In this document: positions 8,328 to 55,381 of the stretch, piece after piece | Position numbering within the stretch: the stretch's first letter is position 1 | Layout: each line of letters starts with the position of its first letter | NCBI GenBank assembly: GCA_946500615.1 | Contig: CAMMWP010000003.1 | Span: 20,756 to 84,755, forward strand | Direction: 5' to 3' | Length of the DNA: 64,000 nucleotides | Source: an uncultured Clostridium sp. | GTDB lineage: Bacteria; Bacillota; Clostridia; TANB77; CAG-508 | The notes under the pieces: model-generated | The model's database searches: none | What the model was told of the DNA's origin: nothing | Seen by the model: the letters and a program-made list of their open reading frames with translations, nothing else | Made by a program: the position numbers and the translations under genes

Positions 8328-8344
8328 GTTGCATTGTTCTTATA

Positions 8345-8574
8345 GTTACCATTCAGCCCTTCTCATCTGAGGGGATCTATATGGTATATTTTTAAGGTTC
8401 TCGGCTACCCTCCAATTGCCGTTTAAGAAATTCTAATATCTAAATCGTAACGATACCCGAAAACAGGACCCTTTACGACTTATATGTAAGAATTTCTAAA
8501 ACGATTCCGGTCGCATTCGAACTCTAAAAAATATACCATATAGATCCCTCAGATGAGAAGGGCTGAATGGTAAC
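8345..8574 (+). repeat. Foldback element copy A (conserved 124-nt core 8398-8521, ~50-bp complementary arms)
   Basis: Left arm gttaccattcagcccttctcatctgagggg... is the reverse complement of the right arm, apart from one bulge. The core is shared with copies at 39365 and 55128. Confidence 0.8.
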
Positions 8575-8679
8575 TTCGTATACAAAAAAATAAAGTGGCA
8601 CAGAAAAAAACTTGTGTATATTATAAAAGATATGATAAAATACTGTTTATATAATAAAAAAGAAAGAAAAGGATAAAAA

Positions 8680-9576
8680 ATGAAAAAAACAGATATTTTA
8701 AGAATGATTGTGGTACTTTTGGGATTATGTATGAGTATTTTAGCATTAGTCATAGCATATTTTTTTCATGCAGATATAAAAACCAGTGAGCCAAAAAAAA
8801 TAGTTGAAGAATGTAAAATTCATACATATAAATTTGAAGGAAGAAATGTATTTACCATTTCCCCAAACAGTATGAAAGAACATGAAAATGTTAATTATAT
8901 ACTATATTTTCATGGAGGGTCTTATGTAGCAGAAGCAACAGATAATCATTGGATATTTTTAGAAAAAATGGTAAAAGATACAGGATATACAGTGATTATG
9001 CCTGACTATCCCTTAACACCAAAATACAATTATAAAGATGTCTATCATATGGTAGAACCATTATATGAAAAAATAATAGAAAAGATAGGGAACAACAAAT
9101 TGATTATGATGGGAGATTCAGCAGGAGGAGGGTTAGCACTTGGATTATATGAAAAAATAGCAGAAGAAAATAAGAAACTTCCAATGAAAACGATGTTAAT
9201 ATCTCCATGGCTTGATGTGAAATTAGAAAATCAAAACATTCAAAAAATAGAAAAGAAGGATACAATCTTAAATAAAGAATTATTAAAACTAGCAGGGAGG
9301 GCCTATGCAGGAGAAGATGGTTTAAATAGTTATCTAGTAAATCCAATTGAGGGGAATTTAGGAATATTAAGAAATATTAAAATTTTTATAGGGACAGATG
9401 ATATATTAAATCCGGATTGTATAGACTTAAAAGAAAAAGCAGACATGGTAGAAGGAGAAGTAGAAATTAAAGAATATGAAAATGCAAAACATATATGGCT
9501 GATTGACAACAATTCAGAACAAAGCATAACACAGAAAGCATATAATGATATGATAGAAGAATTAAAAAATATATAA
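8680..9576 (+). CDS. Alpha/beta hydrolase, HSL/family IV esterase-like, N-terminal membrane anchor
   Basis: HGGS oxyanion-hole motif and GDSAGGGLA nucleophile elbow. N-terminal TM helix. Confidence 0.7.
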   Translation: MKKTDILRMIVVLLGLCMSILALVIAYFFHADIKTSEPKKIVEECKIHTYKFEGRNVFTISPNSMKEHENVNYILYFHGGSYVAEATDNHWIFLEKMVKDTGYTVIMPDYPLTPKYNYKDVYHMVEPLYEKIIEKIGNNKLIMMGDSAGGGLALGLYEKIAEENKKLPMKTMLISPWLDVKLENQNIQKIEKKDTILNKELLKLAGRAYAGEDGLNSYLVNPIEGNLGILRNIKIFIGTDDILNPDCIDLKEKADMVEGEVEIKEYENAKHIWLIDNNSEQSITQKAYNDMIEELKNI

Positions 9577-10886: not shown

Positions 10887-11456
10887 ATGTATATGCTTTA
10901 TCCTAAAAAATTAAGTAGTAAAAAAAGTAATGTATTAATAAAAATATTATTAGGTGTTTCATTGTTAATAGCAATTATTTTAACGATAGTAAATAAATTG
11001 ACAACACCTAATATACACTGGGCTGCACTTGTAAATGGTGGTATTATTTATGCGTGGATCACAGTAAGATATTCAATCAATAAGAGAACCAACATTGCAG
11101 GACATGTTATGATACAAGCAATTGCCATTTCACTTTTAACGACATATATAGATTATAATTTTGGGTTTAAGGGCTGGTCTTTAGAAATTTCTATTCCTAT
11201 TATTATTATGATAGCCAATGTGACAATGCTAGTATTAACAATTGTTAGTCATAGAAAATATGTTAGATATGCGATTTACCAATTAGTGATTTGTATTTAT
11301 AGCTTGATACCGATTTATTTTATGCAAAAAGCCTTAATTAATCATTTCATTTTAAGTTATATTGCAATAGGGATATCTATTTTGAATTTTATTTTAACAA
11401 TTATCCTTTCTGCTAGAGATGTAAAAGAAGCGATTATAAGGAAATTTCATATTTGA
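10887..11456 (+). CDS. Integral membrane protein, unknown function
   Basis: About 5 predicted TM helices. Third gene of the 8680-11456 operon. The start could instead be the ATG at 10893. Confidence 0.6.
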   Translation: MYMLYPKKLSSKKSNVLIKILLGVSLLIAIILTIVNKLTTPNIHWAALVNGGIIYAWITVRYSINKRTNIAGHVMIQAIAISLLTTYIDYNFGFKGWSLEISIPIIIMIANVTMLVLTIVSHRKYVRYAIYQLVICIYSLIPIYFMQKALINHFILSYIAIGISILNFILTIILSARDVKEAIIRKFHI

Positions 11457-11457
11457 T

Positions 11458-11516
11458 CGTTTGGGACATGCCAAAATGGACAAAAAATGTCCAATTTGGC
11501 ATGTCCCCAATGGTTC
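11458..11516. repeat. Palindromic copy of the GGGACA / AAATGGACA repeat family
   Basis: gggacatgccaaaatggaca aaaaaa tgtccaatttggcatgtccc (20-bp arms, 1 mismatch). Confidence 0.6.
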
Positions 11517-13451: not shown

Positions 13452-14386
13452 ATGTGGATATTAGATAAAATAATAAGTAGAAGTTACACCATTAAGTTTG
13501 AAGAACTTTCAGAAGAATGGCTAGAACTAAAAAAAAATACCATCAAACAATCTACATATTATAAATATGCATATTGCATAGAAAAGTATTTAAAAGAAAG
13601 ACTAGGAAAATTAAAAAAGAAAGATTTGGAAAAGTATAATTATAATCAAATGACAAATGAATTAACAAAAGAATTATCCCCAAAATCAGTAAAAGAAATA
13701 TTAAATGTTTTGAAATCGATATTAAAATATGCAAATCAAAAATATGATATGAATATACATTTGGATTTGATTATTTCACCTAAAGTGCGTGTAAAAGAAA
13801 TTAATGTACTGTCGAAAAAAGAAGAGAACAGGTTAGAAAAATACTGTTTAAAAGAAAATAGTTTGAAAAGTCTAGGTATATTGATCTGTCTTAATACAGG
13901 GTTGAGAATAGGAGAGATTTGTGCTTTAAAATGGGAAAATATAGACTTGGACAAAAGAGTTATTTATATCAGAAAAACATTGCAAAGAGTATATACAATT
14001 GAAAAGAAAACACAAATTATTATTGATAGTAGCAAAACAGAATCTTCAATAAGAGCAATCCCTATGTCAGATAAAATTTATCATTTATTAAAAGAGATAT
14101 ATAAAAAAGAATATGTAGAGTCTTTTTTTTTTTAACAGGCTCAAAATTGCAATATGTAGAGCCAAGATGTTATCAAAATGCTTTCAAAAGGATTTTAAAA
14201 GCAAGTAGAGTAAAAGAATACAATTTCCACATTTTAAGACATACTTTTGCAACCAACTGTATCAAAGTTGGGATGGATATCAAATCGCTTAGTGAAATTT
14301 TAGGACATGCTAGTGTGGATGTTACATTAAATCGTTATGTGCATTCTTCATATGAAATGAAAAAGAAGTTTTTGGAAAGATTGTAG
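13452..14386 (+). pseudogene. Phage-type tyrosine integrase interrupted by a frameshift in a T11 homopolymer
   Basis: ORFs 13452-14135 and 14147-14386 together form an integrase (SAM-like N-domain, RIGEICALKWENID, HILRHTFAT, LGHASVDVTLNRYVH). The frames join at the T run 14123-14133. A run of 12 or 9 T would restore the frame. Confidence 0.75.
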
Positions 14387-19036: not shown

Positions 19037-19108
19037 TTCCGGTCGCATTTGAACGCATTAAAAATATACCATATAGTTACTCTCAAATGGAAAGGTCTAA
19101 ACGATAAC
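19037..19108 (+). repeat. Truncated foldback element copy D (3' end of core plus right arm only)
   Basis: ttccggtcgcatttgaacgc followed by an arm homologous to the right arms of copies A and C. Confidence 0.7.
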
Positions 19109-25482: not shown

Positions 25483-25756
25483 ATAAGTTAGAAAAAATCA
25501 CACAAATATTGATTTTTTCTAACTTATAAGGCATCTGTTGAGCGTAGCGTTTGTTCTGTTATAGGAAAAATCGAAGATTTTCCTATAACATCAATCATTG
25601 CACACAAATTTTGACTCACGTAAAATTGTGTACTTTCCTATTGTAGAACATAGGACGTGTCAAATCGTTCAAAAATATCCCCAAAGGACAGGTATGCGAT
25701 GTTATCGTCTGTCCCTTTTGAACAAAAAATGTCCATTTTGGCACGTCCCCAAAGAA
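25483..25756. repeat. Composite of hairpin and mosaic repeat modules
   Basis: Contains a 19-bp perfect hairpin (tataagttagaaaaaatca), an ataggaaaaatcgaag..cctat hairpin, a gcacacaaattttgac..gtaaaat module, a ggacgtgtcaaatcgttc module and a ggacagg..tgtccc palindrome. Confidence 0.6.
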
Positions 25757-35989: not shown

Positions 35990-36203
35990 TAATAAAGTTT
36001 GCAAATCCCTGCATAGTACGTAAGAGCATAATTTTTAGAACCAACAAATTATAAGAGGGGCCAATCTCTCAAATATGGCGTGCAAGCTCACATCAAATAG
36101 TGAGAAGCCCATGAATATTTAGGTAGGCACCCACCTGTTTTTAGGAGCAGGTCCTTAAAAATTAGAAGGCTGACGGCTAAGGCGGGGCTTTTAAATTTTA
36201 TAA
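35990..36203 (+). ncRNA. Candidate rod-shaped sRNA, possibly 6S-like
   Basis: The 5' segment ataaagtttg-c-aaatccctgc pairs with the 3' segment gcggggcttt-taaattttat (about 20 bp including GU pairs). Further internal helices and an apical hairpin ctcac/gtgag are present. Candidate promoter TTGTAA-17-TACTAT at 35951-35979, terminator at 36233-36258. No ORF. Confidence 0.35.
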
Positions 36204-39344: not shown

Positions 39345-39364
39345 GTTTTAAGGATAGTCCTTAA

Positions 39365-39592
39365 GTTACAGTTCAGACTTTCCACCTCAAGAGTAGTCAT
39401 ATAGTATATTCTAAGATTCTCGGCTACCCTCCAATTTTCGTTTAAGAAATTCTAATATCTAAATCGTAACAATACCCGGAAACAGGACCCTTTACGACTT
39501 ATATATAAGAATTTCTAAAACGATTCCGGTCGCATTCGAATCTTAAAATATACTATATGACTACTCTTGAGGTGGAAAGCCTGAACTGTAAC
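39365..39592 (+). repeat. Foldback element copy B
   Basis: Same core as copies A and C. The 57-bp arms have 2 mismatches. Flanked by the direct repeat gtccttaa on both sides. Confidence 0.8.
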
Positions 39593-39630
39593 GTCCTTAA
39601 AGTTCAATCTATAAAAAAATAAAAAAATGC

Positions 39631-42709: not shown

Positions 42710-42735
42710 TTTATTTAACTCCTTTCTGCTCTTTT

Positions 42736-42926
42736 GGAACATTGGGGACAGGTTAAATCGGTCAATTTTTGGAACATTAGGGACAGACCAAATTGTTCAC
42801 ATTTTAGTTTTTTAATATAGAATTGTTTATGTTTTAAATATTTTGATACATCTCCAACATTTCAATGTTCAAAATGTGAACAATTTGGTCTGTCCCTAAT
42901 GTTCCAAAAATTGACCTGTCCCCATT
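42736..42926. repeat. Nested palindromic element filling the spoVAC-spoVAD intergenic gap
   Basis: Perfect 35-bp inverted repeat (42771-42805 / 42871-42905) nested inside outer arms ggggacagg..tcaattttt. Belongs to the GGGGACAG repeat family. Confidence 0.8.
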
Positions 42927-48153: not shown

Positions 48154-48552
48154 ATGAGAAACCAAAGAGGTATTACTTTAATCGCATTAGTTATCACAAT
48201 TATTGTTTTATTAATTTTAGCAGGAGTGTCAATTGCAATGCTTACAGGTGACAATGGAATTTTAACAAAAGCAACACAAAGTAGCGAAGATACTCAAAAA
48301 GCAGAAATTTCAGAAAAGGTAAATATGGCTATTCAAGCAGCATATGCAGATGCAGTTCTTGAAAATACAGCTGACCCAGACTTAACAGTTGATGATATAG
48401 CAACTCAATATAAAGCTGATAATCCAAGCGCTACTGCAACAGCAAGTGGTACAACACTTTCAATTACAGAAGATAGTAAAACATATAGTGTAACTTTAGA
48501 AGCAAAAAATAATTCTTATGTAACAAGTGCAGATAACGTTACAATTCAATAA
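48154..48552 (+). CDS. Pilin-like protein 1 (non-canonical class III signal)
   Basis: MRNQRG/ITLIALVITIIVLLILAGVSIAMLTGDNGILTKA. AGGAGG RBS. Confidence 0.7.
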   Translation: MRNQRGITLIALVITIIVLLILAGVSIAMLTGDNGILTKATQSSEDTQKAEISEKVNMAIQAAYADAVLENTADPDLTVDDIATQYKADNPSATATASGTTLSITEDSKTYSVTLEAKNNSYVTSADNVTIQ

Positions 48553-48584
48553 AAAAGAAAAAATAAGAGAAAGGAAATTTGATT

Positions 48585-49031
48585 ATGAAAAAACAAAATG
48601 GTATTACATTAATCGCTTTAGTTATTACAATTATCGTATTGCTAATTTTGGCAGGGGTATCAATTGCAATGCTTACAGGGGATAATGGAATTTTAACAAA
48701 AGCAAGAAATGCAACTTCAGCAACAGACTTAGCAGAAGCCTTAGAAAGAGTAAATTTGGAATTAAATGCACAACTTGCCAACGCAATGTCTGGATCAGCA
48801 TTTGATGCTCAAGCAGATATCCAAGCAAACGTAAGCACAATGCCAGATGGCTACACAGCAACAGCTACTGTAACAAGTTCTGATTCTTATAGTACATCAA
48901 ATACAGTGACAATTAAACTTGCAGGACCAGAAGGTGTAACAATAACCCCAGCAGCTGGCGGAACAGTAAAATATGACAGTACAGATAAAGTTTGGGAAGT
49001 AACACCAGTTGAAGGTTCAGTTAATGAATAA
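48585..49031 (+). CDS. Pilin-like protein 2 (non-canonical class III signal)
   Basis: MKKQNG/ITLIALVITIIVLLILAGVSIAMLTGDNGILTKA. The N-terminus matches pilin 1 but with synonymous DNA differences. Confidence 0.7.
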   Translation: MKKQNGITLIALVITIIVLLILAGVSIAMLTGDNGILTKARNATSATDLAEALERVNLELNAQLANAMSGSAFDAQADIQANVSTMPDGYTATATVTSSDSYSTSNTVTIKLAGPEGVTITPAAGGTVKYDSTDKVWEVTPVEGSVNE

Positions 49032-53709: not shown

Positions 53710-55056
53710 ATGCCAACTTATATATATAGGGCAATGACTGAAACAGGATTAATTGTTAGGAATAAAATCGAATCACCTAGTAGACAAAACCTACTAAAAA
53801 CATTAAAGGGAAATGGACTATTGCCAATAGACGTTCAGCAAATTCGATATGTAGGAAAACAACCAAAAAAAGCAAAGAAAAATATAACCAATATTGAAGA
53901 GATTATGAAAAATATAAATACCACAAATATTGGAAAAAGTAAACCAAAACAATTATCGACTAAAGAAAAAATTAATCTATACTTTGCTAAAACAGAAAAG
54001 ATCACAAATAGAGATATTATTATATTCACTCAAAACTTTTATCTACTAAAAAAGGCAAATTTTAATAATATTCATGCATTAGATACCATTATTCAAAGTA
54101 CGGAAAATGTATCTTTTAAAGGGATATTAGAAGATATATTAGCAGGTGTTGAAGCTGGTGAAAATATGTATTCAACAATGGAATACTATTCAAATATATT
54201 TCCATATATCTACATCAATATGATAAAAGTAGGAGAACTTTCTGGTTCATTAACCAATTCTTTAGAACAAGCAGTAAAATATTTGGAAGAATCAGATTCT
54301 TTAACTAGAAAGTTAAAATCTATCTTAATACCAAACATTGTACAATTTATATTATTATTGGTAATGTTATTTGTAGGAACAATGGTTGCAATTCCTACAA
54401 TTCAAGGAATATTCGATGAGATGGGAACAGAAGAAGAATTACCAGCAGTTACTTTATGGTTCGCAGATGTAGTAGATGGCATAATTGCGTATTGGTATAT
54501 ACCAGTCATGATTCTGGTAGTGATTGCGGCAGGGATTTTATTTTATATTAACACACCAAAAGGTAAATATAATTTCCATTATTTTAAATATAAAATGCCA
54601 ATATTTGGAGAATTGATTTTTGCTTTAGACTTTTCAAGATTTTTAAAGGCGATGTTATTAAATTTAAGAAATGGAATGAGAATACAGGATTCTATTGAAG
54701 TTAGTAAAAACGTTATAAAAAATTACGTAATGCTATCTATGATAGAAACATCAATTAATAACATGCTTACTGGATCATCATGGATAGAACCATTTGAAGA
54801 ATCTGGTTTGGCTAAACCAATGATAACAGAAATGTTAAAAATAGGTATGCAAACAGACTTAGCAGAAATGATGGAAAAATTGGTGGAATATATGCAAATC
54901 GATATAGATAATATTATGCAAAAAATAATGAAAGTACTACCACAAGTAGTTTATGCAATTGTTGGAGTGGTGTTAATCTTCTTCGTATTAGTTGTACTAG
55001 TGCCATGTATTCAAGTATATATGGGAAATTTCTTATTCTCAGCATATGGTGTTTAA
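53710..55056 (+). CDS. pilC: Type IV pilus platform protein (GspF/PilC family)
   Basis: Two GspF-type repeats with 3 TM segments. 448 aa. Confidence 0.88.
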   Translation: MPTYIYRAMTETGLIVRNKIESPSRQNLLKTLKGNGLLPIDVQQIRYVGKQPKKAKKNITNIEEIMKNINTTNIGKSKPKQLSTKEKINLYFAKTEKITNRDIIIFTQNFYLLKKANFNNIHALDTIIQSTENVSFKGILEDILAGVEAGENMYSTMEYYSNIFPYIYINMIKVGELSGSLTNSLEQAVKYLEESDSLTRKLKSILIPNIVQFILLLVMLFVGTMVAIPTIQGIFDEMGTEEELPAVTLWFADVVDGIIAYWYIPVMILVVIAAGILFYINTPKGKYNFHYFKYKMPIFGELIFALDFSRFLKAMLLNLRNGMRIQDSIEVSKNVIKNYVMLSMIETSINNMLTGSSWIEPFEESGLAKPMITEMLKIGMQTDLAEMMEKLVEYMQIDIDNIMQKIMKVLPQVVYAIVGVVLIFFVLVVLVPCIQVYMGNFLFSAYGV

Positions 55057-55127
55057 AAAGGGAATTTGGGGACAGACTCATTTTCCCCTTTTTTGTTTCC
55101 TATATCACAAAAAATAACGTTGCACAG

Positions 55128-55381
55128 TAAAAACTGGTTACCATTCAGAGTTTCCCATCTGAGGGGATTTATATGGTATGGTTTTATAAGCGTTCTCGGC
55201 TACCCTCCAAGTTTCGTTTAAGAAATTCTAATATCTAAATCGTAACGATACCCGGAAACAGGACCCTTTACGACTTATATATAAGAATTTCTAAAACGAT
55301 TCCGGTCGCATTCGAACGCTTATAAAACCATACCATATAAATCCCCTCAGATGGGAAACTCTGAATGGTAACCAGTTTTTA
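55128..55381 (+). repeat. Foldback element copy C (perfect >60-bp arms)
   Basis: Left arm taaaaactggttaccattcagagtttcccatctgaggggatttatatggtatggttttataagcgttc is the exact reverse complement of the right arm. The core is as in copies A and B. Confidence 0.85.

Follow-up and report, generated by a model that had tools for sequence, protein, structure and literature searches.

A putative MITE-like foldback repeat of uncultured Clostridia with a near-invariant core and variable, self-complementary arms

Introduction

How can a dispersed repeat keep its center almost unchanged while its two ends diverge from copy to copy and still remain complementary to each other? This question is raised by a foldback repeat found in a 64,000-nucleotide stretch of DNA from an uncultured Clostridium sp., which was analyzed as a whole and is here called the window. 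The window has a G+C content of ~29% and a positive GC skew throughout, and nearly all of its genes are located on the plus strand. It contains three full copies of the repeat, each 228-254 bp long, and a fourth copy that is truncated at its 5' end, all in one orientation. The original prediction had described these copies as an unclassified family with an invariant core and hypervariable but self-complementary arms, had called this pattern the opposite of a classical MITE, and had offered two explanations for it, selection on a long hairpin or intramolecular templated repair.

Results

Copies and gene context

The window contains the following copies of the element.

8345-8574: copy A, full element, with arms at 8345-8397 and 8522-8574 and the core at 8398-8521; located between XerD and an alpha/beta-hydrolase.
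19037-19108: copy D, 5'-truncated relic consisting of the last 17 nt of the core and the 3' arm; located between an ABC exporter and DUF6583.
39365-39592: copy B, full element, with the core at 39417-39540; located between HemW and InfC.
55137-55372: copy C, canonical GTTAC...GTAAC element with perfect arms and the core at 55193-55316; located between T2SSF (PilC) and a ROK kinase (glucokinase).

All four copies are found where they had been predicted, in a common direction and between the predicted neighbors. The boundaries of copy C had been placed at 55128-55381; the copy is indeed located there, but the canonical element is shorter, and the outer 9 bp on each side represent an inverted extension into the flanks. 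Each copy is positioned 3' of a terminator-like hairpin of the upstream gene and 5' of a promoter-like site of the downstream gene, with copy B being inserted into the 3' half of a small hairpin. In the relic, copy D, core and arm are still joined. The core motifs TTCTCGGCTACCCTCCAA and TTCCGGTCGCATTYGAA occur three and four times in the window, with 0 and 0.12 occurrences expected. The element had been thought to contain no ORF on either strand. This holds, for ORFs of the listed sizes, in copies B and C, but an 85-aa minus-strand ORF (8496-8753) clips copy A; no ORF is conserved in the element.

Outside the window, a two-block exact pattern had one match in each of five species-level MAGs (L007-L011, assigned to uncultured Eubacteriales, Clostridia, or Bacillota). 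A second, diverged copy (L011b) is present in L011, and a metagenome scan added the copies L012 and L013. Together, eight further copies come from uncultured Clostridia (seven MAGs or metagenome contigs), which gives 11 full copies when those of the window are included. The non-window copies were retrieved by an exact match to 22-27 core bases, so that copies with diverged cores remain invisible and core conservation looks inflated; the three window copies, which come from self-comparison, and the remaining ~100 core bases outside the pattern are free of this bias. A covariance model (R1) run over ~0.56 Mb of fetched loci returned no further or more diverged copies and only a weak match to a second foldback family, described below. 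The copy number is 3.3 per 64 kb in the window versus 1-2 pattern matches per MAG elsewhere. In the window's own species, short-read metagenome contigs break off within copies A and C (the end of L015 and the starts of L062-L065), as expected for a multi-copy hairpin repeat, and MAGs thus probably under-report it. Seven of approximately nine independent insertions are co-directional with their neighboring genes, and the copy in L009 has the opposite orientation.

Conservation and covariation

The 124-nt core is 96-98% identical among the window copies, the arms of which are 68-84% identical. When eight full-length copies are compared, core identity is 92-98% for the main subfamily and falls to 77-82% against L011b. 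The arms of these eight copies are 57-84% identical between copies, whereas the two arms within a copy are 85-100% complementary. The predicted contrast between a near-invariant core and variable, complementary arms thus stands, and the unbiased window copies on their own show the same pattern. The boundary between arm and core is sharp. At the other end of the arms, the outermost GTTAC..TT and AA..GTAAC are conserved between copies, and therefore the element does have conserved tips.

The pairing defects of the arms were described accurately for two of the three full copies: copy C is 100% complementary over 68 bp, and copy B is 96% complementary with two mismatches (A.C and C.A). Copy A, also 96% complementary, has the expected bulge and in addition an indel and an A.A mismatch beside the core. 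In the full-length alignment, 43 of the 100 predicted pairs show compensatory changes, and 96% of the cells are paired; any of the five measures was reached by 0 of 500 shuffles. Compensatory changes are found at 33 of 53 pairs when the arms are considered alone. The covariation noted for the arm bases adjacent to the core (GTTC/GAAC versus ATTC/GAAT) is real, with a GC pair in six copies and an AU pair in five.

Target duplications and element-free sites

The sequences that immediately flank the three full window copies are as follows.

8337-8344: left target-site duplication of copy A, TTCTTATA, identical to the right one at 7 of 8 positions.
8575-8582: right target-site duplication of copy A, TTCGTATA.
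39357-39364: left target-site duplication of copy B, GTCCTTAA, identical to the right one at 8 of 8 positions.
39593-39600: right target-site duplication of copy B, GTCCTTAA.
55128-55136: left flank of copy C, TAAAAACTG, exact reverse complement of the right flank, with no direct duplication.
55373-55381: right flank of copy C, CAGTTTTTA, inverted copy of the left flank.

The copy in L009 is likewise flanked by 8-bp direct repeats (AAAAAAGT and AAAAAAAT, 7 of 8 positions). We estimate, from a binomial calculation, that a direct repeat of at least 7 of 8 positions would arise by chance with a probability of ~0.003 per copy. The duplication has decayed to 4-5 of 8 positions in L007 and L010, and it is absent or unreadable in at least five copies. 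Inverted flanks as in copy C, if less clean, are also present in L008 (over ~14 nt, with a 2-nt indel) and in L011b (over ~8 nt). Either the palindrome has grown into the flanks in these cases, as arm-to-arm templated synthesis predicts, or the element has landed inside host hairpins.

We compared the insertion sites with those of related species, from many of which 10-20 kb of syntenic DNA (80-87% nucleotide identity) were fetched by InfC look-ups. None of these fetched loci contains the element. The hemW/infC spacer measures 447 nt in the window versus 218-270 nt, without the element, in seven loci of relatives, and a single GTCCTTAA is found in this spacer in the relatives L018, L026, and L028. 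The spacer between mscS and a response-regulator gene is occupied in L007 and L010 (362 nt) and is 128-168 nt long without the element in four other species. Absence is concluded here from spacer length together with the lack of a match, the spacers being too diverged for the exact pre-insertion sequence to be read, except for the single GTCCTTAA. In the nearest relative, L069, the pilC/glk spacer is 156 nt long, contains a different repeat, and is not alignable to the copy C site. As judged from these sequence comparisons, the element behaves as a mobile, MITE-like insertion. The notion that it is the opposite of a classical MITE hence does not extend to its mobility features, that is, the conserved 5-nt termini, the 8-bp duplications of three copies, the element-free sites in relatives, and the truncated relic.

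Across the genus, the hemW/infC spacer is a hot spot for insertions, and other relatives carry unrelated ones there. A 350-aa ORF without a Pfam match is found in this spacer in many relatives (among the loci listed, L020, L026, L027, L029, L035, L037, L039, and L040), two small ORFs are present in L034, and ~250 nt of extra noncoding DNA in L066 (2597-3084). The 350-aa ORF lacks inverted ends like those of the element, and we consider it unrelated rather than a mobilizing partner. In the rpoD-mscS gap of one related species (L055-L060, ~2213-2501), there are ~250 nt of extra structured noncoding DNA, again unrelated to the element.

Fold, strand, and core structure

Each full copy is predicted to fold into one long hairpin of 230-254 nt, with minimum free energies of -114 to -151 kcal/mol and z-scores of -16 to -24; a fold this stable was reached by none of 200 shuffled sequences. 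A REPIN-like "clover" fold was considered and rejected, as an arm-local hairpin is supported in copy A only (z-score -3.4) and not in the other copies. The strand that had originally been written out does not appear to be the one that folds: all ten copies tested fold more stably on its reverse, with a gain of 4-19 kcal/mol, and this reverse strand has G.U pairs where the written strand has A.C. When the same structure is mirrored, 97.0% of the inner helix is paired on the minus strand versus 86.9% on the plus strand. At four pairs of the inner helix, G.U predominates among the minus strands of the copies, with A.C at the plus-strand counterparts, and several positions run through C-G, U.G, and U-A across copies. 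This asymmetry amounts to ~10 columns versus 4, many of them inherited rather than independent, and the arms alone contain 4 G.U versus 9 A.C mismatches, too few to call a strand. We thus regard the evidence for strand asymmetry as moderate, and the folding strand is probably the reverse of the one previously written. Neither a double-stranded protein site nor a purely DNA-level palindrome would favor one strand.

8398-8521, minus strand: core of copy A on its best-folding strand, comprising a loop region, a ~34-pair helix, and an apical hairpin.

On the minus strand, the core has an invariant asymmetric internal-loop region, in which UUCGAAUGCGACCGGA is located opposite AGGGUAGCCGAGAA, followed by a helix of ~34 pairs that includes G.U pairs and a conserved U.U mismatch. 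A CCUG-UUUY-CGGG hairpin forms the apex. The internal 15-bp helix of the original prediction is present, but 14 of its 15 positions are paired, the exception being the conserved mismatch (A.A on one strand, U.U on the other), and it forms part of the longer helix that reaches the apical loop. The core also contains two copies of the 9-bp palindrome AGAAWTTCT as well as TTCGAA and CCGG palindromes. Scans for promoters and terminators around copies A, B, and C gave counts as in shuffled sequences, and no site is conserved between these copies.

The apical core helix (8438-8451 with 8471-8484, and at the same positions in copies B and C) reads ATCTAAATCGTAAC [loop] TTACGACTTAKAT. It resembles the element termini placed end to end (GTCTGAATGGTAAC / GTTACCATTCAGAC; 11 of 14 positions), a likeness that hints at an ancient nested or duplicated origin.

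Rates of change in place

The copies in L007 and L010 represent one insertion after mscS, with flanks that are 88-91% identical and with copy-specific arm sequence in common. Because they share these arms, any difference in rate between core and arms must have arisen after insertion. The differences between the two copies are as follows.

Core: 2 of 124 positions.
5' arm: 12 of 55 positions.
3' arm: 11 of 54 positions.
Right flank: 12 of 57 positions.
Four-fold degenerate sites of the response-regulator gene: 21%.
Four-fold degenerate sites of mscS: 40%.

Since insertion, changes have thus accumulated in the core more than 10-fold more slowly than at neutral sites, with the arms (21%) changing at approximately the neutral rate. 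The changed arm pairs comprise five clean double changes (CG>TA, GC>TA, AT>CG, TA>AT, and GC>TA) and seven one-sided changes. Four of the five double changes are transversions without a G.U intermediate, and we estimate that ~0.75 compensated pairs would be expected by chance. These values come from a single orthologous pair. At mscS, the two host species do not group as closest relatives, so that the locus has a history of recombination.

Selection for pairing alone should hold the arms well below the neutral rate. Change at the neutral rate combined with an excess of compensation is instead consistent with one arm being copied from the other. For the arms, the comparison favors a templated component at the DNA level, and for the core, purifying selection. 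Hairpin selection and templated repair, the two original explanations, both remain viable, with the L007/L010 pair favoring the templated component as far as the arms are concerned.

Comparison with known families and search for a partner

A search of Rfam had been suggested for this element. At gathering thresholds, 6S RNA was the sole match in the whole window to Rfam 15, whose families include ribozymes, tRNA, HEARO, and group II intron domains, and the best matches of an E-value search with copy A were plant miRNA hairpins at 25 bits, versus thresholds of 83-140. The 6S RNA gene is located at 36003-36192 on the plus strand (91 bits). ARAGORN reported no tRNA, despite the resemblance of UUCGAAU and GGUAG to T- and D-loops. 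BLAST of copy A against plasmid and phage collections gave no match, and two scans of viral contigs gave six chance 17-mers and then zero matches, with no two-block match. The earlier description as unclassified is thus borne out in the Rfam, plasmid, phage, and viral collections, and the family appears to be a new, MITE-like one.

The element has several of the properties of bacterial MITEs as these have been defined and reviewed (PMC3184786). It is 228-254 bp long, below the limit of ~400-600 bp for a MITE, and without a transposase gene or conserved ORF; it has terminal inverted repeats, with arms of 52-68 bp and an outermost GTTAC/GTAAC that is kept between copies; and it is dispersed, with four copies in 64 kb and presence/absence variation among relatives. 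Like Correia/NEMIS, RUP, and ERIC-like elements, it is a small noncoding element of intergenic spacers that has terminal inverted repeats and, in three copies, a target-site duplication, and it shares with them a fold of the whole element into a long hairpin at the RNA level and a patchy distribution among relatives (PMC3184786). In contrast to these MITEs, its most conserved part is the internal core and not the terminal repeats, its long arms are near-perfectly complementary within a copy but diverged between copies, and it lacks a known parent IS.

Of the repeats described in Firmicutes, the closest analogue is bcr1 of the Bacillus cereus group, which has features of a mobile element and flanking direct repeats, is transcribed, and shows compensatory changes that keep its RNA structure (PMC3184786). 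Both are Firmicute intergenic repeats with mobile features, direct repeats, and compensatory changes. However, bcr1 is ~155 bp long, has 5-bp direct repeats, and forms a cruciform of two independent stem-loops, whereas the element here is 230-250 bp long, shows an 8-bp duplication in three copies, and forms one long rod with an invariant asymmetric core. Rfam and BLAST searches detected no sequence relationship between the two. REPINs are symmetric, hairpin-forming, non-autonomous elements as well; their compensatory changes keep the hairpin, their ends are conserved and their spacers vary and co-vary, and selection has been argued to act on the single-strand fold (PMC3116915). Here the center is conserved and the ends vary; REPINs, moreover, are linked to a RAYT gene and do not show an 8-bp duplication. 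The conservation pattern is thus inverted relative to most MITEs and to REPINs.

Other classes were rejected. REP-RAYT/REPIN elements have GTAG/CGTC-tagged ends and a linked RAYT, and here the ends vary, the center is conserved, 8-bp duplications are present, and the window contains no Y1 transposase. An IS200/IS605-derived PATE, which has subterminal hairpins on one strand but neither terminal inverted repeats nor a target duplication and inserts 3' of a fixed tetra- or pentanucleotide, does not fit the long inverted arms and the 8-bp duplications of unrelated sequence (GTCCTTAA, TTCTTATA, and AAAAAAGT). By inspection, the termini GTTACCA and TGGTAAC do not fit the GTTRRRY and RYYYAAC of integron attC sites, whose R''/L''...L'/R' boxes are found between cassette genes beside an integron integrase, and the neighbors are housekeeping genes. 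A retron msr-msd, which would have a reverse transcriptase gene alongside and a1/a2 repeats enclosing msr stem-loops and a long msd hairpin, is not supported, as no RT adjoins any of the four copies (their neighbors being XerD, hydrolase, HemW, InfC, PilC, glucokinase, and ABC genes).

A Pfam scan of the unassigned ORFs of the window found no transposase, only a split tyrosine recombinase, and neither TnpA nor RAYT was seen among the genes of the window. No autonomous IS with the termini of the element was found in the window or in the fetched loci, and other sequences with these termini in the fetched loci were chance matches with 3 mismatches. The split or truncated tyrosine recombinase (Phage_integrase; 13452-14135 and downstream) adjoins a 383-aa ORF without Pfam matches, diverged partial paralogues of which are located at 48156-48764.

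Three further palindromic sequences were noted. A second foldback family of ~300 nt (z-scores of -16 to -20) is present at L007:4999-5310, L010:2484-2780, and L066:20576-20880. Its terminal module, AAAAAGGGAnTTGGGGACGGACTCATTTTTCCCTTTT, is a 40-nt palindrome, and its inner helix, AGAAATTCT/AGAATTTCT, is also found in the core studied here (covariance model match, E 0.007); the two families may share a mobilizing system or an ancestor. The 40-nt module also occurs alone, in the window at 55055-55093, directly after pilC and ~35 nt upstream of copy C, where it looks like a bidirectional terminator, and in L015, L026, L027, and L009. A third, small palindromic repeat, TTGGGGACAKGCCAAAATGGACAAAAAATGTCCAATTTGGCATGTCCCC, is located at 2534-2579, 11449-11510, 25719-25752, and 42731-42899 in the window and in the pilC/glk spacer of L069.

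Discussion

We favor, with moderate confidence, a non-autonomous foldback family of MITE type, whose core would be selected as a folded single strand and whose arms would be kept complementary mainly by templated correction. The element would consist of ~55-bp inverted arms ending in GTTAC...GTAAC around a noncoding core and would integrate between genes, in most cases shortly after the terminator hairpin of the upstream gene, leaving an 8-bp duplication. From this duplication we infer a transposase that makes a staggered cut and is supplied in trans. Such a partner would be an ORF enclosed by GTTACNNTTCAGAC...GTCTGAANNGTAAC and flanked by an 8-bp duplication, possibly encoding a DDE transposase.

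The core would be under purifying selection in its folded form, on the reverse of the strand first written out. Its invariant asymmetric loops, co-varying helices, and G.U pairs suggest that it is either a minus-strand structured RNA or a single-strand recognition structure of the mobilizing machinery. The arms would require pairing only, drifting at about the neutral rate and serving as a clamp around the core; arm-to-arm templated correction, by palindrome gene conversion or template switching, may be the main process that maintains their complementarity, with selection for pairing possibly contributing. In quasipalindrome correction, mutations of one arm are copied to the other, so that the arms stay complementary while the pair drifts neutrally, and palindromes can grow into their flanks. 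The complementary, drifting arms and the palindrome extension in copy C are shared with this process and with inverted-repeat gene conversion. It is a mutational process rather than an element family, though, and here it would act on the arms only, with the asymmetric core resisting symmetrization.

It is conceivable, if fairly unlikely, that the core is a new structured RNA or ssDNA module (a ribozyme, a protein-recruiting RNA, or a guide-like RNA) riding in a self-repairing hairpin carrier, in which each arm would be rebuilt from the other and the palindrome could thereby also grow into the flanks. Such an arrangement would be novel both as a mobile RNA gene and as a means by which a transposable element maintains itself.

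A multi-copy structured ncRNA gene transcribed from the minus strand, with the long terminal stem as a processing or stability stem and dispersal as a secondary matter, would account for the invariant asymmetric internal loops and the apical hairpin, for the compensatory changes in the inner helix, for a core that is conserved in place in two species, and for G.U pairs that occur on one strand only, which is the more stable one in all copies. We nevertheless consider it unlikely. No promoter or terminator is conserved around copies A, B, and C, and Rfam holds no relative; the target duplications, the element-free sites in relatives, and the truncated relic are insertion behavior; and copy number is very uneven between species. 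Perfect stems of 52-68 bp and double changes by transversion at a near-neutral rate are also hard to obtain through RNA selection alone.

Less probable still is a relative of the single-strand DNA transposons (an IS200/IS605-type PATE or a REPIN-like element), mobilized by an HUH/Y1 transposase that recognizes hairpins of one strand. The hairpin architecture is strand-specific here too, with G.T tolerated on one strand, most independent insertions point in the direction of their neighbors, and REPINs show similar compensatory hairpin changes (PMC3116915). However, 8-bp direct duplications are not made by HUH transposition, and a TnpA or RAYT gene was not seen in the window. Given the positive GC skew of the plus strand, the strand that folds better is complementary to the lagging-strand template in the window, which is wrong for the IS608 model, and the conserved ends and variable spacer of a REPIN are the reverse of what the element displays. 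We also counted in favor of such a relative the TTAC at the element termini, which is reminiscent of the IS608 target.

Equally improbable, in our estimation, is a DNA site recruited by the host, such as an insulator between genes or a platform to which a nucleoid or regulatory protein binds, in which the core would be a double-stranded protein-binding module. The two AGAAWTTCT palindromes, TTCGAA, and CCGG in the core, its conservation in place, and a position that is always between a terminator and the next promoter would suit such a site, but double-stranded binding would not favor G.T over A.C on one strand, most related species have the same sites without the element, and copy number varies widely between species. 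Finally, a purely historical pattern, in which a young 124-bp sequence was inserted midway into an older, diverged palindromic repeat family, is suggested by the sharp boundary between arm and core and by the other palindromic repeat families in these genomes, but it is already disfavored and highly improbable, as neither BLAST nor the covariance model detected arm-only copies in the ~0.56 Mb of fetched loci, the relic D keeps its core joined to an arm, and the single insertion shared by L007 and L010 differs by 1.6% in the core and 21% in the arms.

The family described here is new, and its behavior is unusual but not unprecedented in kind. Bacterial MITEs have mostly been treated as decaying remnants that are constrained at their ends only; in the non-autonomous foldback family we favor, the constraint would reside in an internal, asymmetric, and strand-specific fold. 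If the core is an RNA, a new RNA family would be dispersed in gut Clostridia. If it is a recognition structure, transposition would read a folded strand and yet make 8-bp duplications. The arms, in turn, may provide a natural record of how a long palindrome is maintained in a bacterial chromosome, a process that is usually studied with engineered quasipalindromes only.
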